From: an uncultured Oscillospiraceae bacterium
Lineage (GTDB): Bacteria > Bacillota > Clostridia > Oscillospirales > Oscillospiraceae
Assembly (NCBI GenBank): GCA_947585425.1
Contig: CANPWZ010000001.1
Span: forward strand, 70,367-134,366
Direction: 5' to 3'
Length of the DNA: 64,000 nt
The stretch's first letter is position 1. The number at the start of each line of letters is the position of its first letter. The position numbers and the translations under genes were made by a program. Below are positions 1,248 through 28,825 of this stretch, one piece after another. The notes beneath the pieces are model-generated. The model saw only the letters and a list, made by a program, of their open reading frames with translations. It was not told the DNA's origin and did not search any database.

Positions 1248-1252
1248 ACATC

Positions 1253-1270: not shown

Positions 1271-1276
1271 AAAAGC

Positions 1277-1305
1277 TTGCAATCAAACGAATGTTCTGAT
1301 ATAAT
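1277..1305 (+). promoter_or_regulatory. Sigma-70/SigA-type promoter (TTGCAA - 17 nt - TATAAT)
   Basis: -35 at 1277-1282, -10 at 1300-1305, exact 17-nt spacer. About 24 nt upstream of the DUF1385 ATG, which has SD GAAGGAG. Confidence 0.6.
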
Positions 1306-1328
1306 CTCAGCGTACGAAGGAGAACTCT

Positions 1329-2300: not shown

Positions 2301-2313
2301 GGGGGAAGCGGAC

Positions 2314-9080: not shown

Positions 9081-9220
9081 AAGGTTGCCTCCTTTGTAGG
9101 AATTTTCCTGTTTATAGGTTACTCCCCGCAAACCGGTTTGTCAAATTTTTTTGCGCCAAAAAACGGGCCGTTTTTTTGGGGGATTTTCATAATCCGGGGG
9201 CGGGCCGCCGCGAAAATGCC

Positions 9221-10159: not shown

Positions 10160-10314
10160 GGGCACACCCCCTCGGCCAAGGGTATGGCCCGCCTGTCCCC
10201 TTTAGAACGGACGGGCGTTTTTTCACGAAAATTTTTGAAAAAATAAAGGGTTTTTGCCCCCGGACGGTGTAATAGTAAACGTGAAACATCTTGCACGTTG
10301 AAGGAGGTCATGTG

Positions 10315-11319: not shown

Positions 11320-11320
11320 C

Positions 11321-11950: not shown

Positions 11951-12007
11951 ATGCGGAAAATTGTGATAAAACGGGCCTGTTTTGGCTAATATGCAGGGGG
12001 TGAGACC

Positions 12008-13789: not shown

Positions 13790-13794
13790 CGACC

Positions 13795-15099: not shown

Positions 15100-15108
15100 G
15101 AGGACAGG

Positions 15109-15140
15109 AAAGAGCCGCCTGCGGAAGCAGGCGGCTCTTT
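15109..15140. terminator. Bidirectional terminator AAAGAGCCGCCTGC-GGAA-GCAGGCGGCTCTTT
   Basis: 14-bp stem between the convergent rpoD (stop at 15099) and the MBL gene (stop at 15143). Confidence 0.85.
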
Positions 15141-15142
15141 CG

Positions 15143-15958
15143 TTATTTCCGCTTTTTCGCGGGCGGCTGGCCGGCGTCGGACTCCTTGACGAAGATACCC
15201 ACCAGTTCCCCGGCGTCGGGATCGGCCAGGTCCAGCACGAACAGCCGCCCTTTCAGGGTGGGGATGGGGTAGAACACATATTCCTGGCTGCGCTTTTTGC
15301 CGATGAGGTCCAGACACTGGGCGAAGCGGTCCAGCTTGGATTTGGGGAACAGGTAGTCGAAGTGGGCCAGCAGGAAGTGGTCGAAGGGCACGTCTTTCAG
15401 CCTCTCCAGGGTCTTTTTGTAGTCCTCCAGGGAGCTCTCCGGGAAGAACAGGCAGGCCTGGGGGGAGACGGCGTCCCCGGCCAGCAGGAGGCCGCGCTCC
15501 CGGACGAGCAGGCCCAGGCTGCCGGGGGTGTGGCCGGGCAGGGCGATGACCTCGGCGGTGAGGCCGCCCAGGTCGATGACCGTGCCGGGAGCGATGGGGC
15601 GGACCCGGCTTTTGTCGGCGAAGTTGGGCACCATGTAGGAGAAGTCCATCCCCTGGGTCTCCTCCAGGATGGGCAGCTCGCTGAGGCCCACGTCCATCAG
15701 GGGGAAGTCGGCCTCCGACAGATAGACTCGGTCGAACTGGCAGTTGCCGCCCACGTGATCGAAGTGGCAGTGGCTGTTGATGACCATGGGCGCATGATCG
15801 GTGAGCCCGGCCACATAGGAGCGCAGGTCCCCGATCCCCATCATGGTGTCGTACAGGATGGCGCCGGTGGCCCCCGCCAGCAGGGTGCAGAAATTGCCCC
15901 GCCCGTCCCCGATGTGGAACACGCCCTCCATGACCTCTCTGTGGCTCAGCCCTTCCAT
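15143..15958 (-). CDS. MBL-fold metallo-hydrolase
   Basis: HCHFDHVGG zinc motif and LPGHTPGS. ATG at 15958 preceded by GGAGGG. Confidence 0.8.
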   Translation of the reverse strand: MEGLSHREVMEGVFHIGDGRGNFCTLLAGATGAILYDTMMGIGDLRSYVAGLTDHAPMVINSHCHFDHVGGNCQFDRVYLSEADFPLMDVGLSELPILEETQGMDFSYMVPNFADKSRVRPIAPGTVIDLGGLTAEVIALPGHTPGSLGLLVRERGLLLAGDAVSPQACLFFPESSLEDYKKTLERLKDVPFDHFLLAHFDYLFPKSKLDRFAQCLDLIGKKRSQEYVFYPIPTLKGRLFVLDLADPDAGELVGIFVKESDAGQPPAKKRK

Positions 15959-16035
15959 GCCGGTCCCTCCCCGCGTTTTGGGAAATGGTAGCACGGAAGA
16001 GGGGCGGCTGTCAAGCGGGAAGAGACGGGAAAGGC

Positions 16036-16064
16036 TTGAAACCGCCGGGGATCCGTGATAAACT
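16036..16064 (+). promoter_or_regulatory. Candidate promoter of the PucR-type regulator (TTGAAA - 17 nt - TAAACT, TGn extended -10)
   Basis: Hexamers and spacing read directly from sequence. 32 nt upstream of the ATG at 16096. Confidence 0.4.
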
Positions 16065-16095
16065 AAACGGAAAGACAGAGAGAGGAGCGAGGCGG

Positions 16096-17337
16096 ATGGA
16101 GCGGATGACCCCCGAGCGGCTGGGGCGGGCCAGGGACGAGATGTTCCGGGCCCTTCAGACCAAGACCCCCCTGCGGCAGTTTTTACAGATCGCCCACGAG
16201 GCCACCGGCCTCCAGTTCAGCCTGTGCAGCGCCAGCTTCGCGGTGCTGGCCGCCTGCCCCGACATGGACGACGAGACCAACCTGGTCACCTCCGGCGGCC
16301 GGCAGTTCGTGCGCTTCGGCGTGACCCTGGAGATGGACGAGAAGCGGCACGTGAAGCGCCTTTTGGAGAGCACCCGGCCCAGCGTGTCCAACGACCCCCG
16401 CTTCCCCTATCCCATCCTGTTCCAGGCCATCCGCATCAACCAGGCCATGGTGGCCTATCTTTTCTCCCCCGGCCGGCCGGAGGGCTTTTTCCCGGAGGAG
16501 CTGGAGCTGGTGGAGTACCTGGCCCAGGTGCTGTCCATCGAGATGCAGAAGCAGGACTTTTTTGCCTCCGAGAGCGGCGTGAAATACGAGTACTTCCTGC
16601 TGGAGCTGCTGGAGAGCCGTCTGAAGAGCGAGACCTCCGCCGTCCAGCGGCTGCACCAGCTGGGCCGCAGGCCCCAGCCCTATTACTACCTGGCGGAGTT
16701 CACCTTTGACGACGTGAGCTCCCGCCCCTCGGGCAGCTATTTCTTCGACCAGCTGCTCTCCCTGTTCCCCGACAGCCTGGTGGGGCTCATCAAGGGCCGG
16801 ATGTGCATGCTGCTGCCCAGGGGCCAGATCGGCGCCCTCACCCCCTGGGAGGAGGAGGCGCTGAAGAGCTTTTTGGAGTTCAACCATATGCGGGTCAGCT
16901 TCAGCGACCGATTCACCTCCCTGCTGGCCGCCCCCTATGCCTGGGAGCAGGCCCGCCGGACCGCGGCGGAGGGCTCCGGCGAGGAGCGGGTGCGGTACTA
17001 TGAGCAGGTCCGCCTCTACCACCTGCTGGACCGGGTGGGGGACAGCGAGCTGCTGCGCTCCATGATCCACCCGGACGTGGAGCTGCTCCGCCGGTACGAC
17101 GGGGAGCATAACACCCACTATCTGGACACCCTCTGGGCCTATCTCGACGCCAACCGCAGCGCCGCCCAGGCGGCCTCCGCCCTGTTCATCCACAAGAGCA
17201 CCTTCTTCTTCCGCATGGGCAAGATCGCCGAGCTGGTGGGGGACGACGTGATGCGGGACGGGGAGCGGCTGTTCGACTATGAGCTGTCCCTGCGGCTGCT
17301 GGAATACCTCCACCGGGGGAGCGACCAGGAACATTAG
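16096..17337 (+). CDS. PucR-family transcriptional regulator (uncharacterised N-terminal sensor region plus C-terminal HTH)
   Basis: C-terminal PucR-type HTH YLDTLWAYLDANRSAAQAASALFIHKSTFFFRMGKIAELVG. Start at MERMTPERL after SD GAGGAG. Confidence 0.75.
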   Translation: MERMTPERLGRARDEMFRALQTKTPLRQFLQIAHEATGLQFSLCSASFAVLAACPDMDDETNLVTSGGRQFVRFGVTLEMDEKRHVKRLLESTRPSVSNDPRFPYPILFQAIRINQAMVAYLFSPGRPEGFFPEELELVEYLAQVLSIEMQKQDFFASESGVKYEYFLLELLESRLKSETSAVQRLHQLGRRPQPYYYLAEFTFDDVSSRPSGSYFFDQLLSLFPDSLVGLIKGRMCMLLPRGQIGALTPWEEEALKSFLEFNHMRVSFSDRFTSLLAAPYAWEQARRTAAEGSGEERVRYYEQVRLYHLLDRVGDSELLRSMIHPDVELLRRYDGEHNTHYLDTLWAYLDANRSAAQAASALFIHKSTFFFRMGKIAELVGDDVMRDGERLFDYELSLRLLEYLHRGSDQEH

Positions 17338-17390
17338 ACAAATGTCTGAAAAGAGGCCGTATTTTATATAAAGCATTTGACTGCTGTCGG

Positions 17391-17426
17391 ATGACGAAAC
17401 GGGCAAAGAGAATTATAATCATAATT
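17391..17426 (+). promoter_or_regulatory. Candidate operon promoter (ATGACG - 17 nt - TATAAT) overlapped by inverted repeat AATTAT-AATC-ATAATT
   Basis: -10 TATAAT at 17414-17419. The 6-4-6 palindrome at 17411-17426 overlaps it. Lies in the only AT-rich stretch upstream of the operon. Confidence 0.4.
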
Positions 17427-17526
17427 GAATAGATTGCACAAAGGAGCGCGGCAAAACTCTGGTGTTTATGGGGACAACTCACGATTTTACCGGCGCTCCC
17501 GTGTGAGCGGGCCGCCGGAGGCCGGA

Positions 17527-17569
17527 GCGGGGGAGACCCGCCCGGAGCCCCCGGCGCTTTGCGTTTTTT
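17527..17569 (+). terminator. Terminator-like element inside the operon leader (GC hairpin then TTTGCGTTTTTT)
   Basis: GCGGGGG (17527-33) pairs with CCCCC(G)GC (17548-55), followed by a T6 run at 17564-69. Two more GC hairpins follow at 17601-17618 and 17628-17642. Confidence 0.35.
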
Positions 17570-17673
17570 CAGACGGCAGTCTCGGTTCGTTCGTAATTTG
17601 GCCGCGCGGGCGGCCGCAAACATAGAGGGTCCGGCGGACCCGGGCCCTCAAGGAGAAAACAGGAGGTAATGTT

Positions 17674-18621
17674 ATGGCATTCAAAGTGATGGGCGTCTGC
17701 GGCGGACGCAGAGACGGAAACAGCGAGATCCTGACGAAAGAGGCTTTGCTGGCCTGCCAGGAGCTGGGCGCGGAGATCACCTACGTCAACCTGAACGACT
17801 ACAAGATCCTGGACTGCACCGGCTGCACCCACTGCACCCAGGGGATGTTCATGAAGGGCGAGAACGTGGGCTGTGTGCTGAAGAACGCGGACGACAAGGA
17901 CAAGCTGATGCAGGCCATGTTCGAGAACGACGCCTTCATCTTCGCCGCCCCCACCTACGATCTGCAGGTGTCGGCCAACTTCACCCGGTTCATGCAGCGC
18001 TCCCTGGCCTATGAGACCGCCTTCCTGGAGAAGATCGGCGCCATCAAGCCCAAGCACCGCATCGCCGGCCTGATCACCACCGGCGGTTCCACCCGGGCGT
18101 GGATGTCCATGTCCCTGGAGAACATGCAGGCCGCCATGTTCACCTGCGACTTCAACGTGATCGACATGATCCTGGCCACCCGGGTCCCCGCCAAGGGCCA
18201 CGTGCTCACCCGGCCCGAGCTCATTGAGCGGGCCCACAAGATGGGCGAGAACATCATGCGCTCCCTGAGCAAGGATCCCAAGGACCGGGGCTGGGAGGGC
18301 GACCCCGACTTCGGCTGGTGCCCCCACTGCCACTCCAACTCCCTGTCCCTGGGCGAGCCCCAGTGGGACGGCACCTACTACAAGGTGGAGTGCCAGGTGT
18401 GCGGCTGCGGCGGCGTGCTGAAGGAAGAGGACGGCAAGTGGAAGTTCGTCATCGACCCGGAGAACGGCCACCTGAAGGACCGCACCACCGTGGCGGGCCG
18501 CGGCCTCCATCTGGACGAGATCGGCACCACCGAGGGCGGCTTCTACCGCGATCCCCACAACTTCGAGATCGTCAAGGAGAAGATGCCCCGCTACAAGGAA
18601 ATGAAGTACAAGACCGTGTAA
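17674..18621 (+). CDS. Iron-sulfur-flavoprotein-like FMN reductase (flavodoxin fold) with a Cys-rich C-terminal zinc-ribbon-like domain; candidate flavonoid ene-reductase
   Basis: SD AGGAGG. N-terminal KVMGVCGGRRDGNSE flavodoxin-like start, compact Cys motif C48-x2-C51-x2-C54-x12-C67, C-terminal WCPHCH...ECQVCGCGG. Confidence 0.6.
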   Translation: MAFKVMGVCGGRRDGNSEILTKEALLACQELGAEITYVNLNDYKILDCTGCTHCTQGMFMKGENVGCVLKNADDKDKLMQAMFENDAFIFAAPTYDLQVSANFTRFMQRSLAYETAFLEKIGAIKPKHRIAGLITTGGSTRAWMSMSLENMQAAMFTCDFNVIDMILATRVPAKGHVLTRPELIERAHKMGENIMRSLSKDPKDRGWEGDPDFGWCPHCHSNSLSLGEPQWDGTYYKVECQVCGCGGVLKEEDGKWKFVIDPENGHLKDRTTVAGRGLHLDEIGTTEGGFYRDPHNFEIVKEKMPRYKEMKYKTV

Positions 18622-18664
18622 GTCATCAGGCACAAGTTTACATAATCTTTTAGGAGGTAACACC

Positions 18665-20143
18665 ATGAAGCAACTGGAAACCGATGTCATCGTCGTGGCC
18701 GCGGGTCTGAGCGGTCTGGCCGCCTGCTGCGCCGCCGCCGAGGGAGGCGCCCGGGTCGTCTGCTTTGAAAAAGCCAGCACCACCGGCGGCGCCGCCAACA
18801 TGGGCATGGGCCCCCTGGGCGTGGGCTCCCGCATCCAGCGCGAGCACATGATCCCCCTGAGCCCCATCGAGGCCTTCCGTAAGCATATGTATTTCACCCA
18901 CTACCATGTGGACCCCCGCCTGGTGCGCGACTACTACTTCAAGTCCGGCGACACCATCGACTGGCTGTGCAACATGGGCGTGGAGTTCGTGGGCGTGCAG
19001 CGGGCCTTCGGCGCAGACGAGGCCACCCGCCCCTATTCCGACGGCGAGTTCACCTGGCACGTCTGCAAGCCCGAGGGCGGCGGCGTTCCCGGCCCCCGCG
19101 CCGCCTCCGGCATGATGAAGAAGATGACCGAGTACGCCCAGAGCCTGGGCGTGGAGTTCTACCTGGAGACCCCCGTGAAGAAGCTCATCCAGGAGGACGG
19201 CGCCGTGGTGGGCGTCATCGCCGTGGACAAGAACGGCGAGGAGATCGAGTGCCGCGCGCCCTCCACCATCGTGGCCACCGGCGGCTTCGGCGACAACCCG
19301 GAGATGATCAAGGAGTACACCGGCTTCGAGTTCGGCAAGACCATCTTCAACTTCGCCGTGCCCGGCATGAAGGGCGACGGCATGAAGATGTGCTGGGAGG
19401 CGGGCGCCGCCAAGACCCCCATCATCATGGAGATCATGTACCAGCTGCCCGACAACATGAACCACTTTATCATCGAGGGCGCCTTCCGTCAGCCCTGCCT
19501 GTGGGTGGACCGCAACGGCAACCGCTTCATGCCCGAGGATCAGATCGGCAACACCACCTTCACCGGCAACGCCATCTCCCACCTCCCCGGCAAAGTGGCC
19601 TTCTCCATTTTCGACAGCAAGGCCCTCAAGCGCTATAAGAAGCACGGGCCCGACATCATCTCCCACGTCCATCCCCACGACCTGTACGACCACTTCGACG
19701 AGCAGTGGGAGCGGGATTTGGCCGCCGGCTACGAGCCCATCGCCCAGGGCGACACCATCGAGGAGCTGGCCAAAAACGCCGGCATCGACGTGGACGGCCT
19801 GGTGGCCCAGGTGGAGGAGTACAACGCCATGTGCGACGCCGGCTACGACGAGCTGTTCGAGAAGAACCGCGCCTATATGCAGAAGATCGAGAAGGGCCCC
19901 TTCTACTGCTGCCGCCAGACCGTGGGCGCTTACGGCTCCCTGGGCGGCGTGAAGATCAACCACAAGATGGAGGCCGTGAACGAGGACGCCCGTCCCATCC
20001 CCGGCCTGTACTGCGTGGGCACCGACGCCTGCTCCATCTACGGCGACTCCTATCCCTTCGTGCTGTCCGGCAACACCATGGGCTTCTGCCTGAACTCCGG
20101 CCGCATCGCCGGTGAGAACGCCGCGGCAAAGGTGGGCTTCTGA
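18665..20143 (+). CDS. FAD-dependent oxidoreductase, fumarate reductase/succinate dehydrogenase flavoprotein-like (FAD_binding_2), soluble
   Basis: SD AGGAGG. Dinucleotide fold DVIVVAAGLSGLAACCAAAEGG...EKASTTGGAA and C-terminal IPGLYCVGTDA...GNTMGFCLNSGRIAGENAA. Confidence 0.8.
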   Translation: MKQLETDVIVVAAGLSGLAACCAAAEGGARVVCFEKASTTGGAANMGMGPLGVGSRIQREHMIPLSPIEAFRKHMYFTHYHVDPRLVRDYYFKSGDTIDWLCNMGVEFVGVQRAFGADEATRPYSDGEFTWHVCKPEGGGVPGPRAASGMMKKMTEYAQSLGVEFYLETPVKKLIQEDGAVVGVIAVDKNGEEIECRAPSTIVATGGFGDNPEMIKEYTGFEFGKTIFNFAVPGMKGDGMKMCWEAGAAKTPIIMEIMYQLPDNMNHFIIEGAFRQPCLWVDRNGNRFMPEDQIGNTTFTGNAISHLPGKVAFSIFDSKALKRYKKHGPDIISHVHPHDLYDHFDEQWERDLAAGYEPIAQGDTIEELAKNAGIDVDGLVAQVEEYNAMCDAGYDELFEKNRAYMQKIEKGPFYCCRQTVGAYGSLGGVKINHKMEAVNEDARPIPGLYCVGTDACSIYGDSYPFVLSGNTMGFCLNSGRIAGENAAAKVGF

Positions 20144-20144
20144 T

Positions 20145-22277
20145 ATGGTGACGCTGACTGTCAACGGCCAGGTCATCCAGGCCGCCGAGGGGCAGTCGGT
20201 CCTCCACGCGGCGCTGGCGGCGGGGGTGTACATCCCCCATCTGTGCGACCACCCTGACCTGGAGGCCAAGGGCGGCTGCCGCCTGTGCAGCGTGACGGTG
20301 GACGGCGGGGACGTGCCTGTCCCCGCCTGCACCACCACCGTGGCTGAAGGCATGGTGGTGGACAGCAGGACCGAGGCCGCGGAGCTGACCCGCCGCACCT
20401 CCATGGAGCTGATGCTGGCCACCCATCCCGCCGACTGCACCGGCTGCCCCAAATACGGCAAGTGCGAGCTGCAGAGCCTCTATCAGTACATGGGGGTCAA
20501 CGGACAGGACTGGCGCATGAAGTCCCGCCCCGTCCCCAACAACGACTCCAACCCCCTGATCTCCCACCTGTTCACCCGCTGCATCCGCTGCGGCCGGTGC
20601 ATCCGCGCCTGCCAGGACCTGCGGGGCGTGAAGGTGCTGGACTACGTCCGGGACGGCGTGGGCGTCCACGCCGGGGTGCCCGGGGGCAAGAGCCTGGTGG
20701 AGGCGGGCTGCCGCTTCTGCGGGGCCTGCATCGAGGTGTGTCCCACCGGCTCCATCGTGGACGCGGTAGGCGTGATGGAGAAACACCCCGCCTACGCCGA
20801 CAACGTGGTGCCCTGCCGGGCCGAGTGCCCCGCCCACACCAATATCCCGGAGTACATCCGGGCGGTCCGGGAGGGGAGACCCGGCGACGCGGTGGCCATC
20901 ATGCGGGAGAAGCTGACCTTCCCGCTGACTTTGGGCTACATCTGCAACCACCTGTGCGAGACGGGCTGCAAGCGCACCGACGTGAACGACCCCCTGTCCA
21001 TCCGCAACCTGAAACGCTTTGCCGTGGAGAACGACAAGGAGCAGGCTTGGAAGGACAAGGGATTTCGGAAACCCCGCACCGGCAAGCGGGTGGCGGTGGT
21101 GGGTTCCGGGCCCTGCGGCCTGACGGCGGCCTACTACCTGAACAAGCTGGGCCACGACGTGACCGTTTTCGAGAAGCGGCCCCAGCTGGGCGGCCCCATG
21201 ACCAGCGGCATCCCGGCCTACCGGCTGCCCATCGAGGGGGTCAACGCCGAGATCCAGTACATCATCGACTCCGGCGTGAAGTACGAGGTCAACCACGAGG
21301 TGTCCGATGCGGCGGCCCTGAAGAAGGACTACGACGCCGTGCTGGTGGCGGTGGGCGTGTCCAAGGGCAAGAAGTTGGGCTTCCTGCCGGGGGCCGATTT
21401 CGACCAGGTGTACACCGCCATCGACGTGCTGGCCGACCTGCGGGCGAACAAGGACATTTCCTATCTGGGCCAGACGGTGTGCGTGATCGGCGGCGGCTCG
21501 GTGGGGTTCGACGCGGCCCGGTCCCTGGTGCGGAAGGGCCTGACGGTGAACCTGGCCTGCATCGAGCCGGCGGACAAGATATTGGCGGACAAGGAGGACC
21601 AGGTGGAGGGCGCCGAGGAGGGCGTGAACATTCTGCCGGGGCGGTCCTTCGAGGAGATCGAGGGCAGCCAGAAGCAGGTCACGGGTCTGCGGGTCCACAC
21701 GGTGAAGTCCTCCACCTATGACCGGGCCACGGGCAAGGTGACGGAGGTGGCCGTGGAGGGGAGCCAGACGGTGATCCCCTGCGACAGCGTGATCTTCGCC
21801 ACGGGGCAGTACACCGGGCTCCAGGACTTTGAGAACTTCGGCATCGAGCTGAACCGGATGGGCTATCCCATCGACCCGGAGACGGGGAAAAGCGGCTTCA
21901 GGACCAGCGTGGAGGGCATCTTCGCGGCGGGCGACGCCATCACGGGGATCAGCTTCGTGATCAAGGCCATCGCGTCGGGCCGGGAGGTGACGTCGGTCAT
22001 CGACAAGTACCTGGGCGGCGACGGGGACATCGAGGAGACCCTGGTGGAGCGTACGGCCGATCCCCACATCGGGGAGTTCCCTGGGTTCGGGACGCTGCCG
22101 CGCATCGAGATGGACGTGGTGGACCCCGCGACCCGTGTCAAGAACGGGGACGAGAACGTCTACAAGACCTATACCTGCGAGCAGGCCCGCTGCGAGGCCC
22201 AGCGCTGCCTCCAGTGCGATCTGCGGCTCCAGCTGGAGACGGTGAAGCTCTGGAACGAATACGGAGGTGGCGAGTGA
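20145..22277 (+). CDS. Fusion oxidoreductase: NuoG/HydA-type N-terminus ([2Fe-2S], His-ligated [4Fe-4S], 2x[4Fe-4S]) plus GltD/NfnB-like NAD(P)H-FAD module
   Basis: ATG 1 nt after the upstream stop. Motifs CDHPDLEAKGGCRLC, HPADCTGCPKYGKCELQ, CIRCGRCIRAC, CRFCGACIEVCP, then CRAECPAHTNIPEY, LCETGCKR, VAVVGSGPCGLTAAYYL and GIPAYRLP. Confidence 0.8.
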   Translation: MVTLTVNGQVIQAAEGQSVLHAALAAGVYIPHLCDHPDLEAKGGCRLCSVTVDGGDVPVPACTTTVAEGMVVDSRTEAAELTRRTSMELMLATHPADCTGCPKYGKCELQSLYQYMGVNGQDWRMKSRPVPNNDSNPLISHLFTRCIRCGRCIRACQDLRGVKVLDYVRDGVGVHAGVPGGKSLVEAGCRFCGACIEVCPTGSIVDAVGVMEKHPAYADNVVPCRAECPAHTNIPEYIRAVREGRPGDAVAIMREKLTFPLTLGYICNHLCETGCKRTDVNDPLSIRNLKRFAVENDKEQAWKDKGFRKPRTGKRVAVVGSGPCGLTAAYYLNKLGHDVTVFEKRPQLGGPMTSGIPAYRLPIEGVNAEIQYIIDSGVKYEVNHEVSDAAALKKDYDAVLVAVGVSKGKKLGFLPGADFDQVYTAIDVLADLRANKDISYLGQTVCVIGGGSVGFDAARSLVRKGLTVNLACIEPADKILADKEDQVEGAEEGVNILPGRSFEEIEGSQKQVTGLRVHTVKSSTYDRATGKVTEVAVEGSQTVIPCDSVIFATGQYTGLQDFENFGIELNRMGYPIDPETGKSGFRTSVEGIFAAGDAITGISFVIKAIASGREVTSVIDKYLGGDGDIEETLVERTADPHIGEFPGFGTLPRIEMDVVDPATRVKNGDENVYKTYTCEQARCEAQRCLQCDLRLQLETVKLWNEYGGGE

Positions 22278-22843
22278 TGGAGGAGAGACTGTTGGACCTG
22301 CCGGAGACCTGCTGCCCTGTGGACGAGCTGCTGAAATACGTCCGGGGCCACAAATGCCTGGACTGCGGCAAGTGCGTCTTTGGCTATGAGGGCGCCGCCC
22401 AGCTGGAGATGACCCTGAACGACATCACCATGAAGAAAAGCCGCGGCTCCGACATGGACCAGCTCCGCAAGCTGTGCGGCCTGATGAAGACCCAGGCGCT
22501 GTGCGAGGACGGCGTGGAGCTGGCCGATACCGCCCTGGCGGTGATGGAGAAATACGCCGACGAGTTCGCCCAGCATGTGGCCAAGCGGAGCTGCAAGGCC
22601 GGCGTGTGCAAGCGGTTCGTCACCTACCACATCCTGGCCGACAAGTGCGTCGGCTGCGGCGACTGCATGGACGCCTGCGAGGACGATGCCATCCAGGGCC
22701 GCGCCAAATTCATCCATGTCATCGACCAGGATGAGTGCACCCAGTGCGGCAAGTGCAAGGAGGCCTGCGAGGAGGACGCCATCGTGGTGGCCGGCGCCAT
22801 CAAGCCCCGGTGCCCGCCCAGGCCCATCCCCTGCCGCCGCTGA
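22277..22843 (+). CDS. Fe-S protein: NuoF-type [4Fe-4S] binding region plus 2x[4Fe-4S] ferredoxin domain, without an NADH/FMN domain
   Basis: ATGA start/stop overlap at 22275-22279. Motifs CLDCGKC...C, then CVGCGDCMDAC and CTQCGKCKEAC. Confidence 0.7.
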   Translation: MEERLLDLPETCCPVDELLKYVRGHKCLDCGKCVFGYEGAAQLEMTLNDITMKKSRGSDMDQLRKLCGLMKTQALCEDGVELADTALAVMEKYADEFAQHVAKRSCKAGVCKRFVTYHILADKCVGCGDCMDACEDDAIQGRAKFIHVIDQDECTQCGKCKEACEEDAIVVAGAIKPRCPPRPIPCRR

Positions 22844-22860
22844 CGGCGGCCCACATTCCT

Positions 22861-22888
22861 TTGGGATCTGATTTAAGATCAATATAAA
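22861..22888 (+). promoter_or_regulatory. Weak candidate internal promoter (TTGGGA - 16 nt - TATAAA) ahead of the carrier-protein module
   Basis: Sits in the only AT-rich gap inside the operon (22844-22919) and follows a GC hairpin that overlaps the upstream stop codon. Confidence 0.3.
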
Positions 22889-22919
22889 ACCAACAAATTT
22901 TTTAAGGAGGTCATTTATC

Positions 22920-23159
22920 ATGGAAGAGCGTACCAATGTTTATGAGAAGATCGTGGAGCGGCTGACCGCCATGCTGGGCGCGAAGGACTACACCGAGGCC
23001 ACCGCCTTTGCCGACCTGGGCATGAAGTCCGTGAACTATTCCTCTATGATCAACGTGCTGGAGGACGAGTTCGACGTGGAGATCCCCTTCATGGATTTCC
23101 GCCGCAAGGCCACCATCGGCGAGGCTGTCGATTTTGTTTGCAATCTGATCGACGGCTGA
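22920..23159 (+). CDS. Acyl/peptidyl carrier protein (79 aa) with a non-canonical attachment motif
   Basis: SD AAGGAGG. ACP/DltC-like helix pattern ADLGMKS(37)VNYSSMINVLEDEFDVEIPFMDF. The Ser is in the canonical position but is preceded by K rather than D. Confidence 0.7.
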   Translation: MEERTNVYEKIVERLTAMLGAKDYTEATAFADLGMKSVNYSSMINVLEDEFDVEIPFMDFRRKATIGEAVDFVCNLIDG

Positions 23160-23174
23160 GAAAGGAGTACCTGA

Positions 23175-24941
23175 ATGGAATCCAAAGGTATGTCCAACGG
23201 CCATGAGATCTTCTCTGAGAAGAGGGTCATGAAGGGGGAGGAGATCGAGGTCTTCTACCGCCAGGCCCGCACTCCCGTGGACCCCGAGGAGGGGCTGGAC
23301 CTCTCCAAACTGGAGGGCATCGCCTCCACCGCCCACGGCTTCTGCGCCAAGTTCAACCAGCGCACCTATATGACCGAGGACGGCCTCATCTGCGAGCAGG
23401 ACGTCCCCGTCATCCTCCGGGACGGCACCAAGATCTACACCGACATCTACCGCCCCAACACCACCGAGAAGGTCCCCGTGCTGATCTCCTGGAGCTACTA
23501 CGGCAAGCGCCCCGGCGACGGCATGAGCGAGTGGCAGGTGATGGGCGTGGCCCCCGGCACCATCTCCACCATGGCCAAGTTCGAGTCCCCCGACCCCGGC
23601 TTCTGGTGCCACAACGGCTATGCCATCGCCAACGTTGACCCCCGCGGCACCGGCCACTCCGAGGGCGACATCGACATGTTCGGCTCCATCGACGCCCAGG
23701 ACGGCTACGACTTCATCGAGTGGGTCGCCCAGCAGCCCTGGTGTTCCGGCAAGGTGGGCATGGGCGGCAACTCCTGCGTGGCCATGACCCAGGTCCGCAT
23801 CGCCGCCACCCAGCCCCCCCATCTGGCCTGCATCGCCCCCTGGGAGGCCACCTGCGACATCTACCGCGAGTCCATCTACGAGGGCGGCATCCCGGCCCTG
23901 AGCTTCAACGAGTTCATCGTGGCCTCCCTCACCGGCCCCAACAAGATCGACGACCAGGTGGAGAACGGCCGCCGCTATCCCCTGATGAACGGCTACTGGG
24001 AGGACAAGATCCCCGACTTCAAGAAGATCCGCATCCCCGTGTACGCCTGCGCGTCCTGGCAGCATTTCCATCTCCACGGCTCCTTCAACTTCTTCCGCAA
24101 GATCCGCTCCACCAAGAAGTGGATGCGGGCCCACCGGGAGCAGGAGTGGCCCGATCTGTACAACACCGCCCACGCCATGGACCTCAAGAACTTCTACGAT
24201 CGGTTCCTGAAGGACGTCCACAACTGCTTCGAGATGACCCCCCGCTATCGGATCGAGGTCATGGACGCCTACGACTACGACTATCAGACCGACCGGCCTG
24301 AAAAGGAGTTCCCCCTGGCCCGGACCCAGTACAAGAAGCTGTACCTCAACGCCGCCGACGGCTCCCTCAACTGGGAGAATCCCGCGGTGGAGAGCAAGGT
24401 CAGCTATGAGTCCAACACCGAGCAGGTCAACTTCGACATCAAGTTCGAGGAGGACACCGAGATCACCGGCTACATGAAGCTCCGCATGTGGGTGGAGGCC
24501 GACGGTCACGACGACATGGACCTGTTCATCACCATCAAGAAGCTGGACGAGGACGGCAACTGGCTGCCCACCAGCATCCTGGGCGAGCCGCACCCCGGCA
24601 CTTGGGGCAAGCTGCGCGTGTCCCACCGGGAGCTGGATCCCAAGCTGTCCACCGACTTTGAGCCCGTCCTGTCCCACAAGCGGGAGCTGAAGCTGAAGAA
24701 GGGCGAGATCGTCCCCGTGGACATCGCCCTGGTGCCCACCAGCTGGATCTGGCACAAGGGCCAGCAGCTCCGGGTGGAGGTGGCCGGCCGCTACATCCGC
24801 GAGGGCTGGTTCGAGCCGCTGACCTGGGAGACCGACAACCACGGCCAGCACATCATCCACACCGGCGGGCAGTATGAGAGCTATCTCCAGATCCCCGTCA
24901 TCCCGCCCAAGTATAAGGCGGGCGACTACACTTATCGCTGA
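23175..24941 (+). CDS. CocE/NonD-family alpha/beta serine hydrolase (Peptidase_S15-like plus C-terminal jelly-roll), cytoplasmic
   Basis: SD AAAGGAG. Motifs YGKRPGD, NVDPRGTGHSEGD and nucleophile elbow VGMGGNSCVAMTQ (compare CocE GVSYLGVTQ). About 588 aa, no signal peptide. Confidence 0.75.
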   Translation: MESKGMSNGHEIFSEKRVMKGEEIEVFYRQARTPVDPEEGLDLSKLEGIASTAHGFCAKFNQRTYMTEDGLICEQDVPVILRDGTKIYTDIYRPNTTEKVPVLISWSYYGKRPGDGMSEWQVMGVAPGTISTMAKFESPDPGFWCHNGYAIANVDPRGTGHSEGDIDMFGSIDAQDGYDFIEWVAQQPWCSGKVGMGGNSCVAMTQVRIAATQPPHLACIAPWEATCDIYRESIYEGGIPALSFNEFIVASLTGPNKIDDQVENGRRYPLMNGYWEDKIPDFKKIRIPVYACASWQHFHLHGSFNFFRKIRSTKKWMRAHREQEWPDLYNTAHAMDLKNFYDRFLKDVHNCFEMTPRYRIEVMDAYDYDYQTDRPEKEFPLARTQYKKLYLNAADGSLNWENPAVESKVSYESNTEQVNFDIKFEEDTEITGYMKLRMWVEADGHDDMDLFITIKKLDEDGNWLPTSILGEPHPGTWGKLRVSHRELDPKLSTDFEPVLSHKRELKLKKGEIVPVDIALVPTSWIWHKGQQLRVEVAGRYIREGWFEPLTWETDNHGQHIIHTGGQYESYLQIPVIPPKYKAGDYTYR

Positions 24942-24956
24942 TAGGAGGAATGTGCC

Positions 24957-25955
24957 ATGGGTATGATGGATGAGATCCTGCGGAAGGCCAAGGCCGATCC
25001 GCAGATCGTGGCGTTCCCCGAGATCGGCGAGGAGAAGATCCTGAAGGCGGCGCAGGAATGCGCCGCCCAGGGGATCTGCAAGCCCATGCTGGTGGGCAAG
25101 GGCGAGGAGATCAAGGCCGCCGTGGCCCAGTTCGGCATCGATATGACCGGCATCTCCGTGTTCGACACCACCGATGAACACGCCTGCGAGGAGGTCTTCA
25201 ACGCCTACGGCGCGGTGAATACCGAGATGAGCGCCAAGGCCATCCGCCGCAAGGCCAAGGACGATATGTATGTTGCCCTGATGATGCTGGCCATCGGCAA
25301 GGTGGACGTGATGTTCGCCGGCATGAGCCACACCACCGGCGAGGTCATCTGGGGCGGCCAGTCCATCGTGGGCCTGAAAGAAGGCGTCACCACCGTGTCC
25401 AGCATCGGCGTGTCCCAGATCCCCGGCTGGAACGGCAGCGAGGGCGACCTGCTCATCATCGGCGACAGCGCCGTGTGCGTCAATCCCGACCCCGCCGATC
25501 TGGCCTCCATCGCCGTGTCCGCCTGCGACACCGCCCGGGACCTGCTGGGCTGGGAGCCCCGCTGCGCCATGGTGTCCTACTCCACCGACGGCAGCGCCGA
25601 GAGCGAGCTGGTGGACAAGGTGCGCAAGGGCGTGGAGATCGCCCGGCAGATGCGGCCCACCTACGCCATCGACGGCGAGTTCCAGCTGGACGCCGCCATC
25701 GTCCCCGCCGTGGCCGCCAAGAAGGTCAAGCGGGAGAGCCCGGTGGCCGGCAAGGCCAACATCATCATCTGGCCCGACCTGAACGTGGGCAACATCGGCG
25801 TGAAGCTGCTGCAGATCTTCGGCCATGCCGACGCCTATGGCCCCGTGCTCCAGGGCTTCAAGAAGATCGTGTGCGACTGCTCCCGCAGCGCCCCCGTGTC
25901 CGAGATCGTGGGCAATGTGGCCATCGCCGGCGTCCGCGCCCAGAACAATAAGTGA
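24957..25955 (+). CDS. Phosphate acyltransferase of the Pta/Ptb family
   Basis: SD AGGAGG. Motifs IVAFPEIGEEKILKAA, DGEFQLDAAIVPAVAAKK, VAGKANIIIWPDLNVGNIGVKLLQ, GPVLQGF. Confidence 0.85.
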   Translation: MGMMDEILRKAKADPQIVAFPEIGEEKILKAAQECAAQGICKPMLVGKGEEIKAAVAQFGIDMTGISVFDTTDEHACEEVFNAYGAVNTEMSAKAIRRKAKDDMYVALMMLAIGKVDVMFAGMSHTTGEVIWGGQSIVGLKEGVTTVSSIGVSQIPGWNGSEGDLLIIGDSAVCVNPDPADLASIAVSACDTARDLLGWEPRCAMVSYSTDGSAESELVDKVRKGVEIARQMRPTYAIDGEFQLDAAIVPAVAAKKVKRESPVAGKANIIIWPDLNVGNIGVKLLQIFGHADAYGPVLQGFKKIVCDCSRSAPVSEIVGNVAIAGVRAQNNK

Positions 25956-25958
25956 CCC

Positions 25959-27059
25959 GTGAAGGTATTTGCCATCAATCCCGGCTCCACCTCCACCAAG
26001 ATCGCCCTGTTCGAGGACGATCAGAAGCTGTTTCAAAAGAACGTGGACCACGACGCCGGGGAACTCAAAAAGTTTAAAGAGATCGCCGACCAGCTCCCCT
26101 TCCGCATGGAGACCATCCTGGCGGAGGTGGAGGCGGCGGGGATCGACCTGTCCCAGGTGGACGCCTGGGCCGCCAGGGGCGGCGGACTGGTGGGCCTGGT
26201 CAGCGGCGTGTACGCCATCAACGACGTGATGCTGCGGGACGCCCGGGCCTGCGTCACCCGGCACCCCAACACCCTGGGGGTGCAGATCGCCCTGGAGCTG
26301 CAAAAGCGGTACGGCGGGGAGATGTTCTGCGTCAATCCCCCCGACGTGGACGAGCTGGACGACGTGGAGCGGATCACCGGCTTCCACGAGGTCTTTCGCC
26401 AGAGCAAGGGCCACCCCCTGAACCAGAAGGAGAACTGCATCCGCTACGCCGCCGCCCAGGGCAGACAGTATGAGGACATGAACCTCATCTGCTGCCACAT
26501 CGGCGGGGGCGTGTCGGTGGCGGCCCATCGGAAGGGGCAGCTCTGCTGCTGCAACGACGCCCTCAACGGCGACGGCCCCATGGCCCCCACCCGGGCCGGC
26601 TGGGTCCCCGCCACCGACGTGATCCGCATGAGCTTTTCCGGCAAATTCACCGAGAAGGAGCTCATCGACCGGGTGATGAAGCACGGCGGCCTGGTGGACC
26701 ACCTGGGCACCGCCGACGCCCGGGAGATCGTGGAGCGCATCCAAAAGGGCGATAAGTACGCCAAGCTGGTGTACGACGCGTTCATCCGCCAGCTGGCCAA
26801 GGCGGTGGGCGGCTGCGCCGCCGTCCTGGAGGGCAAAGTGGACGCCATCATCTTCACCGGCGGCATCGCCCACGACAAATACCTGGTGGACGAGTTGAGC
26901 CGGTACGTGGGCTGGATCGCCCCCATCTCCGTCCAGGCGGGCGAGTTCGAGATGGAGGCCCTGGCCGCCGGCGCCATCCGCGCCCTGAAGGGCGAGGAGC
27001 GCGTCAGGCAGTACACCGGGGTGCCCGTTTTCGAGAACTTCGACCACTTGAAAAGCTGA
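25959..27059 (+). CDS. Butyrate-kinase-family acyl kinase (ASKHA)
   Basis: GTG start 3 nt after the Pta/Ptb stop. Motifs KVFAINPGSTSTKIALFED, CCHIGGGVSVAAH, IIFTGGIAHDKYLV. Confidence 0.85.
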   Translation: MKVFAINPGSTSTKIALFEDDQKLFQKNVDHDAGELKKFKEIADQLPFRMETILAEVEAAGIDLSQVDAWAARGGGLVGLVSGVYAINDVMLRDARACVTRHPNTLGVQIALELQKRYGGEMFCVNPPDVDELDDVERITGFHEVFRQSKGHPLNQKENCIRYAAAQGRQYEDMNLICCHIGGGVSVAAHRKGQLCCCNDALNGDGPMAPTRAGWVPATDVIRMSFSGKFTEKELIDRVMKHGGLVDHLGTADAREIVERIQKGDKYAKLVYDAFIRQLAKAVGGCAAVLEGKVDAIIFTGGIAHDKYLVDELSRYVGWIAPISVQAGEFEMEALAAGAIRALKGEERVRQYTGVPVFENFDHLKS

Positions 27060-27097
27060 AAAAAGCGCGGGAGCCGCGAGGCTCCCGCGCTTTCATT
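27060..27097. terminator. Operon terminator AGCGCGGGAGCC-GCGA-GGCTCCCGCGCT
   Basis: 12-bp GC stem directly after the kinase stop, with an A-run upstream and TTCATT downstream. Confidence 0.8.
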
Positions 27098-27349: not shown

Positions 27350-28696
27350 ATGCAGCAAAAGACCAAACTTGGCATCAACTTTGGCTTCCGCGGCTGGATG
27401 CTGATGATCTTTGAGATCTCGGCGTTCCTGGTGTTCCAGGCGTTCACCAACTTCCCGATGAACATGCTGGCGGGCTATTACACCCACCTGGATGACGCGG
27501 TGGCCGGCCAGCAGCTGGCTCCCATCATGACCATCGGTACCCTGGTGGGCATCGTGATCCAGCTGGTGCTGTCCAACTTCCTGGGCAAGATGAAGAGCGT
27601 GAAGCCCATGGTCCTGGGCTTCGGCGTGCTCACCCTGCTGTCCGCCCTGGGCGTGGCCGCCCTGCCCTACGGCACCCCCTGGAAGATCTGCTACTTCCTG
27701 GTGTCCGTGTTCTCCAACATCTACGGCATGTTCGGCATCGGCATCCTGATCGGCCAGTGGTTCCCCACCCGCAAGGGCGTGTTCATGGGCATCGCCACCT
27801 TCGCGTTCCCCGTGTGCAACGGTCTGATGGGCCCCTTCGCCGCTCTGGTGTTCCCCGCCAACGCCGCCCCCAACCCCTTCATGGGCTTCCTGCCCTTCCT
27901 GATCGTGGGCGTCATCGGCTGGGTCCTGGGCCTCATCTTCATCTCCGACTATCCTGAGCAGGTCGGCTGCTTCCGCGACAACGACAAGTCCTTCACCAAG
28001 GAGAAGGCCGACGCCATGCTGGCCGAGGAGATCGAGAACAAGAAGACCACCGTGTGGAAGCTCCCCAACACCCTGAAGTGCAGCCAGTTCTGGCTGATCA
28101 CCATCCCCATGGGCACCCTGCTGATGTGCTCCGTGGGTATGATGACCCAGACCCAGGCCATCATCGGCGCTTATGAGCTGAACTTCGGCCAGGTCATGGG
28201 CATGGTCATGATCTTCGCCCTCATCGGCTCCTATGTCCTGGGCCTGATCGACGGCAAGTTCGGCACCAAGACCGCCATCCTGATCTCCGAGATCATCATG
28301 CTGCTCTCCGGCATCCTGGGCGGCATCGGCAAGCCCGCCACCGCCATGATCTCCATCATCCTGCTGGCCATCTTCATGGGCGCCGGCTCCAACTTCACCG
28401 TGTCCGGCGCGGCCCAGTACTGGCGCCGTGAGGACTTCTCCACCGTGTTCGGCATCGTGAACCCCATCGCCAACATCCTGCAGTGCGTGGGTCCCACCGT
28501 GGTGGCCATGACCATCGCCATCGGCTCTCAGAACGGCCTGGGCGTGACCCTGCCCTTCTGGGTGACCGCCGTCATCGCCCTGATCTCCGTCATCCTGGTC
28601 GCCGCGTTCCAGCCCAGCAAGGTCAAGGCCGCTGACGACAAGTACCGTCAGGCCGCCGGCAAGCCCCTGGACGACGCTCTGGTGGGCCGCAAGTAA
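27350..28696 (+). CDS. MFS transporter (about 448 aa, about 12 TM; oxalate/formate-antiporter-like organisation)
   Basis: Start at MQQKTKLGINFGFRGW after SD GAGGTG. Uniformly hydrophobic with two 6-TM halves separated by a charged loop (DKSFTKEKADAMLAEEIENKK). Confidence 0.75.
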   Translation: MQQKTKLGINFGFRGWMLMIFEISAFLVFQAFTNFPMNMLAGYYTHLDDAVAGQQLAPIMTIGTLVGIVIQLVLSNFLGKMKSVKPMVLGFGVLTLLSALGVAALPYGTPWKICYFLVSVFSNIYGMFGIGILIGQWFPTRKGVFMGIATFAFPVCNGLMGPFAALVFPANAAPNPFMGFLPFLIVGVIGWVLGLIFISDYPEQVGCFRDNDKSFTKEKADAMLAEEIENKKTTVWKLPNTLKCSQFWLITIPMGTLLMCSVGMMTQTQAIIGAYELNFGQVMGMVMIFALIGSYVLGLIDGKFGTKTAILISEIIMLLSGILGGIGKPATAMISIILLAIFMGAGSNFTVSGAAQYWRREDFSTVFGIVNPIANILQCVGPTVVAMTIAIGSQNGLGVTLPFWVTAVIALISVILVAAFQPSKVKAADDKYRQAAGKPLDDALVGRK

Positions 28697-28796: not shown

Positions 28797-28825
28797 TTGA
28801 CATGAGGGGGACAAATTTGTATAAT
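28797..28825 (+). promoter_or_regulatory. Perfect consensus promoter TTGACA - 17 nt - TATAAT with TG immediately upstream of the -10
   Basis: Read directly from sequence. 36 nt upstream of the chalcone isomerase ATG. Confidence 0.75.

Follow-up and report, generated by a model that had tools for sequence, protein, structure and literature searches.

What does a bacterium do with an operon that joins a set of reductases to a carrier protein, a serine hydrolase, a phosphotransacylase, and an acyl kinase? This question is raised by positions 17674-27059 of the window, i.e., of the whole stretch of 64,000 nucleotides analyzed here, which belongs to an uncultured Oscillospiraceae bacterium (assembly GCA_947585425.1, contig CANPWZ010000001.1, positions 70,367 to 134,366). 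According to the list of open reading frames (ORFs) and the codon-position GC, this interval holds eight plus-strand genes, referred to below as A-H; the initial annotation, made from the letters of the sequence, had spoken of nine, but its own list names eight. The answer that we consider somewhat probable is an alternative, energy-conserving route of anaerobic flavonoid breakdown, whose two modules are fused in one operon: reductases (A-D) and a cassette of acyl carrier protein (ACP), CocE/NonD-family enzyme, Pta-type phosphotransacylase, and butyrate-kinase-family kinase, or Buk (E-H).

Full-text searches of the PMC literature (7.7 million papers) and of 0.34 million preprints, a scope outside which subscription-only papers lie, gave no description of the cassette of ACP, CocE/NonD, Pta, and Buk; this agrees with the earlier statement that no characterized pathway with this gene set is known. 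The same searches gave no paper that brings flavone reductase (FLR) together with a carrier protein, and specialist papers from 2024-2025 (PMC11868195 among them) still list only FLR, chalcone isomerase (CHI), Fcr, and phloretin hydrolase (Phy). As a system the cassette appears to be new, with a putative function that is read from its context. The gene families, the conserved and lost residues, and the linkage of the genes are observed directly, and the predicted Pfam families were confirmed for all eight products. Of the refuting conditions set out with the initial annotation, none that can be checked by computation applies.

Carrier-protein cassette and its conservation

The distribution of the cassette was taken from a genome scan with one genome per species, which yielded 67 loci, including 50 informative ones with enough flanking sequence. 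Among the latter, ACP, Pta, and Buk stand beside F in 45, 43, and 43 loci, respectively, with ACP directly upstream of CocE, and all four genes are present in 41 loci from several phyla, so that the expected co-conservation is borne out. The hosts belong to Oscillospiraceae, Lachnospiraceae, Vallitaleaceae, Christensenellaceae, Erysipelotrichaceae, Slackia/Eggerthellaceae, Acidobacteriaceae, Anaerolineae, Desulfobacterota, and Leptospirales, and their habitats are gut, rumen, soil, and sediment. Cultured carriers include Konateibacter massiliensis (Marseille-P3773, with two cassettes), Slackia equolifaciens DSM 24851, Anaerobacterium chartisolvens DSM 27016, and Lachnoclostridium sp. Marseille-P6806, which makes the cassette directly testable. 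A PucR gene adjoins it in 29 of the 50 loci, mostly in divergent orientation.

A minimal unit, PucR beside ACP-CocE-AcpS-Pta-Buk-MFS with identical CocE, occurs in three genomic contexts (L068, at ~8000-15600, L069, and L070), two of which adjoin a DDE transposase or a phage-type integrase plus IS605 OrfB. Since this unit recurs with an identical CocE in differing contexts and the cassette is cohesive, the latter looks autonomous and mobile. The CocE protein of these three loci is indexed in 256 blocks of the sequence collection, and the cassette looks common. As for the A/B/C/D reductase set, it is found beside the cassette in ~20 loci, usually in a unit apart, with a PucR or LysR gene of its own. 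The co-occurrence of the two sets, anticipated from the window, is thus confirmed for these loci, but elsewhere they mostly form two units, and the eight-gene operon is, judging from such arrangements, a lineage-specific fusion of a reductase and a cassette module.

The dedicated carrier protein is encoded by E (22920-23159, plus strand, as are all genes of the operon). It matches PP-binding (PF00550) with 29.2 bits against a cutoff of 20.8, and falls below the cutoffs of all equivalog models for ACPs of fatty acid synthesis (FAS), e.g., 32 bits against 70 for TIGR00517. The serine aligned to Ser36 of E. coli AcpP is invariant in 28 homologues. The residue before it is Lys or Arg, in contrast to Asp in FAS ACPs (motif K/R-S-V/G vs D-S-L), and a basic FMEFRRK segment stands where AcpP is acidic. 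These features fit a private holo-ACP synthase (AcpS) and private partner proteins. Such an AcpS gene lies inside the cassette in 28 of the 50 loci, usually between F and Pta. In ~10 loci (L035, L037, L039-L043, L047, L052, and L066) from Lachnospiraceae, Ruminococcaceae, Anaerolineae, and rumen metagenome-assembled genomes (MAGs), the ACP gene is tandemly duplicated upstream of CocE, and in 7 of these 10 a polytopic membrane protein of 398 aa, which matches no Pfam family, is encoded ahead of the tandem ACPs. Natural-product biosynthesis, which would also combine an ACP with a thioesterase, was rejected, as the 67 loci are devoid of KS, AT, A, and C domains.

F (23175-24941) is an alpha/beta serine enzyme composed of Peptidase_S15 (PF02129, 6e-42) and PepX_C (PF08530, 3e-33), and its membership in the CocE/NonD family is confirmed by TIGR00976 (232 bits, cutoff 66.3). 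It matches PDB 3ib3 (6.6e-102), an uncharacterized protein. Ser200 is aligned to the nucleophile Ser117 of cocaine esterase (hhalign probability 99.9%, 458 columns), and both G198 and S200 of the G-x-S-x-x motif are invariant (34/34). Further conserved positions are His297 (33/34), His299 (34/34), and His320 (33/34), along with invariant Asp228 and Asp260. His320 is the probable counterpart of CocE His287, in a gapped part of the alignment, and Asp228 and Asp260 are alternative candidates for the acid. The N-terminus, read directly, has no signal peptide. F is 59-100% identical across phyla, and each of its 120 best database clusters shares 65% identity or more with it. No match to the Phy/PhlG (DAPG-hydrolase) models was found among the scanned operon and flanking proteins, F included. 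We propose that F may act as a C-C-cleaving acyltransferase that loads the ACP.

The Pta-type protein G (24957-25955) has a PTA_PTB domain (PF01515, 3.7e-86, 290 bits) and scores 250 bits with the Pta equivalog TIGR00651, below its cutoff of 311. Among 45 cassette Ptas, catalytic Ser309 is kept in all and Arg310 in 44, and the Asp316 position holds Asp or Glu in all 45 (Methanosarcina thermophila numbering). The Arg133 column, however, contains L, M, I, V, or W in 45/45 and the Arg87 column a residue other than Arg in 44/45, whereas the four solved Ptas used for comparison have Arg at both. According to published work, Arg87 and Arg133 lie in the CoA-binding site and mainly affect Km, while Ser309 and Arg310 affect kcat (PMC6461089). 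The retention of the catalytic pair together with the loss of the CoA-site arginines therefore fits a thiol other than CoA, i.e., ACP-pantetheine, and the reaction proposed for G is the conversion of acyl-S-ACP and phosphate to acyl-phosphate. H (25959-27059) belongs to the Acetate_kinase family and exceeds the cutoff of the butyrate-kinase equivalog TIGR02707 (408.9 vs 289.1 bits); it is proposed to turn acyl-phosphate and ADP into the acid and ATP. Along with A and CHI, H is the only ordinary member of its family in this system.

Reductases and links to flavonoid and phloroglucinol breakdown

A (17674-18621), initially described as an Isf-like flavoprotein, does contain the FMN_red domain, but is more exactly a member of the FLR family. 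Its sole PDB match is the entry group 7D38/7D39/7D3A/7D3B (E-value 1.2e-29, residues 4-288 of A against 2-280), which represents FLR of Flavonifractor plautii (PMC7862272). W149, H271, I275, G146, and S147 of FLR are identical in A, and the position of G106 falls within an insertion, where it is not alignable to A. The importance of W149, H271, and I275 (and of G106) is known from mutagenesis, and mutation of the first three cripples FLR; G146 and S147 contact FMN (PMC7862272). A thus keeps the residues with which FLR contacts its substrate. A-type proteins are 27-34% identical to FLR; at ~30%, A is therefore a paralogue and not an orthologue. It also carries a CX2CX2C...C motif and a C-terminal CxxC...CxxC, and is a candidate flavonoid ene-reductase for the C2=C3 bond of flavones.

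B (18665-20143) had been described as fumarate-reductase-type, which holds for its fold: FAD_binding_2 (PF00890) is found with 4.6e-53, and PDB 1qo8 (2e-39) indicates the flavocytochrome-c/urocanate-reductase type. The fumarate site, however, is lost, with H365 replaced by Y (or Met), R381 by F, R402 by T, H504 by Y, and R544/545 by Y (or Val), and these replacements hold in 19-20 of 20 members of the B family. Judging from these residues, the pocket of B is aromatic and non-carboxylate. The best NCBIfam match is vinyl phenol reductase VprA (NF053717), though sub-threshold with 303.7 bits vs a cutoff of 600. B is thus regarded as a candidate FAD-dependent reductase of the C=C bond in chalcones (or hydroxycinnamoyl compounds). 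Fumarate reductase, urocanate reductase, and steroid dehydrogenase activities were rejected for B on the basis of active-site residues and sub-threshold equivalog scores.

C (20145-22277) fuses a NuoG-like N-terminus with 2Fe-2S and 4Fe-4S cluster domains to a GltD/NfnB-like FAD/NAD(P)H oxidoreductase (Fer2_4, NADH-G_4Fe-4S_3, Fer4_Nqo3, Fer4_20, and Pyr_redox_2; 392 bits for PRK12771), and is co-located with B in 19-20 of the 50 loci. D, which extends from 22277 (or 22274) to 22843, was initially taken for a NuoF-type [4Fe-4S] plus ferredoxin protein. The domains are indeed there (NADH_4Fe-4S, 7e-13, which is the C-terminal [4Fe-4S] domain of NuoF, and 2x Fer4, a 2x[4Fe-4S] ferredoxin domain), but the protein is truncated and has no NADH/FMN domain. 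Most other loci encode a 364-368-aa form (e.g., L011 6702-7796 and L071 19077-20183) with an extra N-terminal domain of ~190 aa, which has no Pfam match and is absent from the 188-aa D of the window. Since neither the short nor the long form has an NADH/FMN site, the GltD-like domain of C is the only nucleotide site in C/D, which makes C the candidate electron-input subunit and D the candidate electron-transfer subunit. For the same reason a NuoF-containing NADH module of the Stn/HydABC kind was rejected, the 364-aa form being included. A genuine 427-aa NuoF present in the sequence cluster of D comes from an unrelated position in L020.

The polyphenol link suggested by the initial annotation gains support from the neighbours of the cassette as well as from A. 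True FLR orthologues, 56-74% identical to the crystallized FLR, are encoded in 13 cassette loci, either after Buk or after B-C-D. In 8 loci (L003, L004, L007, L010, L028, L054, L058, and L065) the cassette stands beside phloroglucinol-degradation genes, namely an SDR, a cyclase-family hydrolase, a 3-hydroxyacyl-CoA-dehydrogenase-like protein, BKACE, the CoA transferase CtfAB, and thiolase. The cassette-linked SDR matches PDB 5g4k/5g4l with an E-value of 1.5e-97, entries that we take to be the phloroglucinol reductase (PGR) of Clostridium; the literature confirms such a structure, not the code. The same gene set is published as an anaerobic phloroglucinol cluster (PMC10470551). L003, which is the nearest distinct relative and whose F is 90% identical, has on one strand the order PucR-AcpS-A-B-C-D-ACP-CocE-Pta-Buk-PGR-DPGC, and in L054 and L058 the cassette leads directly into the full phloroglucinol pathway.

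Several smaller observations concern the same neighbourhoods. A 116-aa Cupin_2 protein, which could be a pathway isomerase or tautomerase, is encoded between the cassette and the PGR gene or directly after Buk (L028 16879, L054 13252, L058 10129, L013 13971, L014 6852, and L056 14326). L071 contains at 934-3170 an NfnA/NfnB-like pair (NAD_binding_1/DHODB_Fe-S_bind and Fer4_20/Pyr_redox_2) between the BKACE and CoA-transferase genes of its cassette-side phloroglucinol cluster, and this pair may supply NADPH to the phloroglucinol reductase. EtfA with an N-terminal ferredoxin domain is encoded upstream of the cassette in L023 (375-1577), L024 (2-4585), and L060 (3209-7959), accompanied in the last two by an AMP-dependent acyl-CoA ligase, which is also present in L045 (2372-3985). 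By its composition, this cluster resembles the caffeyl-CoA reductase (Car) system and may represent a second phenylpropanoid link.

The CHI gene downstream of the operon (28861-29694, plus strand; Chalcone_N, PF18232, 6.6e-55, 184 bits; a 277-aa gene call) encodes a protein 67-79% identical to CHIs from gut metagenomes, including 67% to a CHI from human gut whose neighbour gene is 100% identical to FLR. The arrangement known from F. plautii, LysR beside FLR-CHI, was found in the metagenome CHI scan. The MFS transporter between the operon and CHI (27350-28696, plus strand; MFS_1) is a candidate flavonoid importer, and genes 48-52% identical to it adjoin CHI and an FLR homologue in L086/L087. 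A DUF1097 membrane protein is encoded 3' of CHI in ~15 gut metagenome loci (L137-L152), and copies 44-51% identical occur in the cassette loci L008, L009, L017, L024, and L036; DUF2798 is likewise seen in both settings, as is an MFS protein. Judging from this distribution, the DUF1097 and DUF2798 proteins are candidates for flavonoid transport or tolerance.

Proposed route and its alternatives

What follows on the substrates, the direction of the flux, the transfer of acyl groups to ACP, and the steps assigned to A and B is proposed from homology and gene context. Electrons of NAD(P)H would enter at the GltD-like FAD site of C, and the Fe-S clusters of C and D would relay them to the ene-reductases A and B. 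A would reduce the C2=C3 bond of a flavone or flavonol to give a flavanone, CHI would open the flavanone to a chalcone, and B, in place of Fcr/enoate reductase, would reduce the chalcone double bond to yield a dihydrochalcone (e.g., phloretin). Module E-H would take the place of phloretin hydrolase. In this module, Ser200 of F would attack the aryl-ketone carbonyl of the acyl-phloroglucinol, phloroglucinol would be released by a retro-Claisen type C-C cleavage, and the acyl-enzyme would be resolved by the phosphopantetheine thiol of E rather than by water. Phosphorolysis of acyl-S-ACP by G would then give acyl-phosphate, from which H would form ATP and arylpropionate, and phloroglucinol would enter the known reductive pathway, presumably encoded elsewhere in this genome and lying directly downstream in relatives. 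In a possible variant, the chalcone would be cleaved first and B would reduce the hydroxycinnamoyl product; the resemblance of B to VprA and the Car-like cluster in L023, L024, and L060 speak for it. As thiolase illustrates, the cleavage of a beta-dicarbonyl by a thiol is exergonic, and a thioester could therefore be formed from an acyl-phloroglucinol.

A broader claim, which we take to be quite possible though a little short of probable, is that ACP-CocE/NonD-(AcpS)-Pta-Buk is a mobile module for substrate-level phosphorylation via capture of acyl groups on a carrier protein, released from a C-C or another activated acyl bond, with a gain of one ATP per flavonoid, and that C/D are the physiological donors of FLR-type reductases.

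In comparison with the FLR-CHI-Fcr-Phy route of F. plautii, Eubacterium ramulus, and Clostridium butyricum, the proposed substrates, intermediates, and products (phloroglucinol and arylpropionate) are alike; A is in the FLR family, CHI in the known CHI family, and FLR orthologues occur in cassette clusters. However, the known route uses OYE-type Fcr for the second reduction, which is assigned here to an enzyme of FAD_binding_2 type fed by an NAD(P)H/Fe-S module, and a Phy/PhlG-family hydrolase for the C-C cleavage, which is assigned here to CocE/NonD with ACP, AcpS, Pta, and Buk. Hydrolysis by Phy wastes the bond energy, whereas the route proposed here would yield ATP. Thus, the earlier remark that the known flavonoid route relies on different enzyme families is correct for the second reduction and for C-C cleavage, but not for A, which shares the FLR family. 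In known degraders flr, fcr, and phy are consecutive (PMC11868195). From the arrangement of cassette loci, it appears that B/C/D may fill the slot of Fcr and the cassette that of Phy, and some genomes are reported to have FLR, Fcr, and CHI but no Phy.

The individual steps have precedents in other systems, although the proposed one belongs neither to thiolase-Pta-Ack nor to PlsX/FakAB nor to FLR-CHI-Fcr-Phy. The thiolase-Pta/Ptb-Ack/Buk pathway follows the same logic of thiol cleavage of a beta-dicarbonyl, phosphorolysis, and ATP formation, and G and H belong to the same superfamilies; there, however, the thiol is CoA and the cleaving enzyme thiolase, while here they would be ACP pantetheine and an alpha/beta serine enzyme, followed by a Pta without CoA-site arginines. 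PlsX interconverts acyl-ACP and acyl-phosphate, and the PlsX/FakAB system, which also has a carrier protein, thus shares all three chemical species with the route proposed here. Its families, however, are unrelated (PlsX is not a PTA_PTB protein, nor is FakA an ASKHA acetate/butyrate kinase), and it is anabolic and ATP-consuming, i.e., runs in the opposite direction. Dedicated catabolic carrier proteins with their own prosthetic-group transferase, as in the cassette, are known from citrate lyase and malonate decarboxylase, but these carry a 2'-(5''-phosphoribosyl)-3'-dephospho-CoA group and have no acyl-phosphate/kinase step.

As for F, the alpha/beta-fold enzymes BphD and MhpC exemplify C-C cleavage via a Ser acyl-enzyme, and F keeps the nucleophilic Ser; alpha-amino-acid ester hydrolases of the CocE/NonD family exemplify acyl transfer to a nucleophile other than water. 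We know of no BphD/MhpC-type or CocE/NonD member that uses a carrier protein as the acceptor. B resembles VprA/HcrAB of Lactiplantibacillus plantarum, which are FAD_binding_2 ene-reductases acting on a phenol-conjugated double bond, and in HcrAB the partner of such an enzyme is a flavin reductase, as A is paired with B here. B differs from them in its sub-threshold score (304 vs 600 bits) and in being encoded together with C and D, which are large Fe-S/NAD(P)H proteins.

A number of results weigh against the flavonoid route. First, it is drawn entirely from homology and gene neighbourhood, and the scan behind the latter used query-derived peptide patterns, so the sample is biased to close relatives and may miss distant ones as well as classic degraders. 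Second, 13 of the 41 complete cassettes have no recognizable flavonoid or phloroglucinol gene within 10 kb, and the cassette substrate could therefore be broader or different. Third, the cassette and B/C/D are absent from all 80 metagenome CHI loci scanned, and adjacency to CHI is therefore specific to the lineage of the window. A also falls short of the >50% identity that was applied by the authors of the FLR study in their search for homologues in gut metagenomes (PMC7862272). Within the 64-kb window, tblastn reveals neither AcpS nor, with all members of the cluster as queries, any phloroglucinol gene. As regards F, the column of cocaine-esterase Asp259 holds His297 in 33 of 34 family members, its catalytic machinery therefore appears to differ from the textbook triad, and we know of no CocE/NonD member that cleaves C-C bonds. 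Finally, an Abhydrolase_3/BD-FAE esterase accompanies the cassette in 18 of the 50 loci, which hints at ester substrates.

This last hint belongs to the alternative that survives best, although we consider it unlikely: the logic from ACP via acyl-phosphate to ATP is the same, but in place of a C-acyl-phloroglucinol the cassette would take a phenolic acid in the form of an activated oxygen ester or a lactone (aryl or enol esters, depsides, chlorogenic-type hydroxycinnamoyl esters, galloyl esters, or dihydrocoumarin-type lactones), and B is a hydroxycinnamate/vinylphenol-type reductase acting on the freed acid. All characterized CocE/NonD members are esterases, amidases, or acyl-transferases, the best curated match of B is a vinyl phenol reductase, the esterase gene follows the cassette in the loci just mentioned, and the Car-like acyl-CoA ligase/EtfA-ferredoxin cluster and the 13 cassettes without flavonoid or phloroglucinol neighbours also suit such substrates. 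An ordinary alkyl ester, however, has too little group-transfer potential to pay for a thioester and ATP, which by established thermodynamics leaves aryl and enol esters as the only feasible ones. Moreover, no quinate, gallate-decarboxylase, or transhydroxylase genes are seen among the recurrent neighbours, and this reading does not account for the linkage to FLR orthologues (13 loci), CHI, and the complete phloroglucinol pathway (8 loci).

An ATP-consuming direction, similar to FakAB/PlsX, is rather improbable. Here, Buk and Pta would activate an aromatic acid to acyl-ACP, either for reduction by B or for transfer by CocE; alternatively, CocE would be a thioesterase that frees the product. 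The sequence from acid via acyl-phosphate to acyl-ACP is established in fatty-acid uptake of Gram-positive bacteria (FakAB/PlsX), the Pta and Buk reactions are reversible, and many enoate reductions require a thioester, e.g., that of caffeyl-CoA reductase. Yet the relatives of B (VprA, urocanate reductase, and fumarate reductase) use free substrates and not thioesters, and the reductase set is missing from more than half of the cassette loci. Where the cassette stands alone with no more than a regulator and a transporter, it would run a futile, ATP-burning cycle, and the neighbours are catabolic (phloroglucinol fermentation), with no acceptor-forming or biosynthetic genes.

Least probable of all is that G and H are ordinary CoA-dependent enzymes that harvest acetyl- or butyryl-CoA from phloroglucinol fermentation beside unrelated hydrolytic or lipid-related ACP, AcpS, and CocE: published phloroglucinol clusters do include Pta/Ack or Ptb/Buk (PMC10470551) and G and H give good scores with the general models of Pta and Buk, but 41 of 50 loci have the four genes together, 33 of them with no phloroglucinol gene nearby, AcpS is inserted between CocE and Pta, Arg87/Arg133 of the CoA site are missing in 44-45 of 45 cassette Ptas, and a Pta-type protein paired with a Buk-type one is atypical, the usual pairs being Pta-Ack and Ptb-Buk.

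If the energy-conserving flavonoid route is correct, the Phy step would bring one ATP per flavonoid to anaerobes of gut, rumen, soil, and sediment, and carrier-protein-dependent substrate-level phosphorylation by a hydrolase-fold C-C-cleaving enzyme would be a new kind of energy conservation in fermentation. It would also mean that a second enzyme set for flavonoid ring fission has been missed by surveys that seek only FLR, CHI, Fcr, and Phy. C/D would then be the candidate physiological reductant system for FLR, which has so far been assayed only with an artificial FMNH2-generating system (PMC7862272). In addition, biocatalysis might gain a way to convert dihydrochalcones into activated arylpropionyl thioesters or phosphates.

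Operon boundaries, flanking genes, and genomic setting

The window has a G+C content of 63-69%, and a third-position GC of 0.85-0.97 was used to mark real genes; for A-H it equals 0.87-0.94. The same-strand ORFs and the junctions 18621/18665, 20143/20145, 23159/23175, 24941/24957, and 25955/25959 given by the initial annotation hold, and the genes are tightly spaced (43 nt for A/B, 1 nt for B/C, an overlap for C/D, 76 nt for D/E, 15 nt for both E/F and F/G, and 3 nt for G/H). The overlap at 22277, reported at first as ATGA, is in fact GTGATG, with the C stop TGA at 22275-22277 and D starting either at ATG 22277, which gives the 188-aa gene call of public assemblies, or at GTG 22274. Shine-Dalgarno sites of the GGAGG type precede A, B, D, E, F, and G (6 of 8 genes). 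H has no such site and begins with GTG 3 nt past the stop of G, and is therefore probably translationally coupled to it. A search for a ninth gene in the D-E gap and the leader gave a 12-codon ORF with no Shine-Dalgarno site as the sole candidate, and long antisense ORFs, e.g., the one of 1378 aa at 22911-27047 (minus strand), were dismissed as high-G+C artefacts, as their third-position GC is not raised.

Upstream of A, the consensus scan lists a promoter-like site ATGACG-17-TATAAT at 17391-17419 (plus strand), which is a match to the consensus only (10 of 12 positions). It is followed by a leader of ~250 nt (17420-17673, plus strand) with a hairpin and U-run at 17543-17571, a possible attenuator. 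The structured leader noted earlier is therefore present with its hairpin, but with a minimum free energy of -110 kcal/mol it is only modestly better folded than shuffled sequences (z = -2.24). A riboswitch is no more than a lead, since there is no Rfam match even at E <= 1 and the z-score is this modest. Across 263 nt the leader is 78% identical to that of L002. In L003/L004 the interval between PucR and A is occupied by an AcpS gene (3940-4335), where the window has the structured leader (17338-17673). At the end of the operon, a hairpin with a G+C-rich stem of 12 bp, AGCGCGGGAGCC-gcga-GGCTCCCGCGCT, is read directly from the plus strand at 27064-27091, in agreement with the terminator described before, though its T tail is weak (TTTCATT). 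Because of this tail, the consensus scan does not list the hairpin on the plus strand, and gives its complement on the minus strand.

Both Pfam and public gene calls support the context described initially, i.e., PucR upstream and MFS plus CHI downstream. The MFS gene forms a separate transcription unit, and CHI has a perfect sigma-70-type promoter, TTGACA-17-TATAAT, in the consensus scan (28797-28825, plus strand). Since each has its own promoter-like site, they are neighbours of the operon and not its members. The PucR-family regulator (15985-17337, plus strand; HTH_30, 1.9e-13, and GGDEF_2) is divergent from a metallo-beta-lactamase (MBL)-fold gene (15143-15994, minus strand). As called, the two ORFs share 10 nt head-to-head, and one or both of the starts must be mis-set; the true PucR start is probably downstream of 15985. 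Homologues of the MBL-fold gene recur near the cassette in L006, L039, and L067.

Related public contigs come from uncultured Oscillospiraceae of rabbit gut, and an identical F protein is present on two ENA contigs. The window is ~92% identical at the nucleotide level to L002, a rabbit-gut MAG contig, from which it is distinct. In this comparison, operon proteins are 95-99% identical, PucR 74%, and the MBL-fold gene 88%, and this drop in identity suggests a possible recombination boundary immediately 5' of the operon. Housekeeping genes surround the region, with recA, dnaG, and rpoD upstream and yabP/yqfD, phoH, ybeY, era, mutS2, uvrC, the dcw cluster, and guaB downstream. As the rest of the 64 kb is housekeeping, the interval of 15.1-29.7 kb (~15 kb) represents an accessory island within a core region. 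Among the few minus-strand genes of this co-directional housekeeping region is the one at 7719-9131, which encodes a 470-aa LVIVD-repeat protein.

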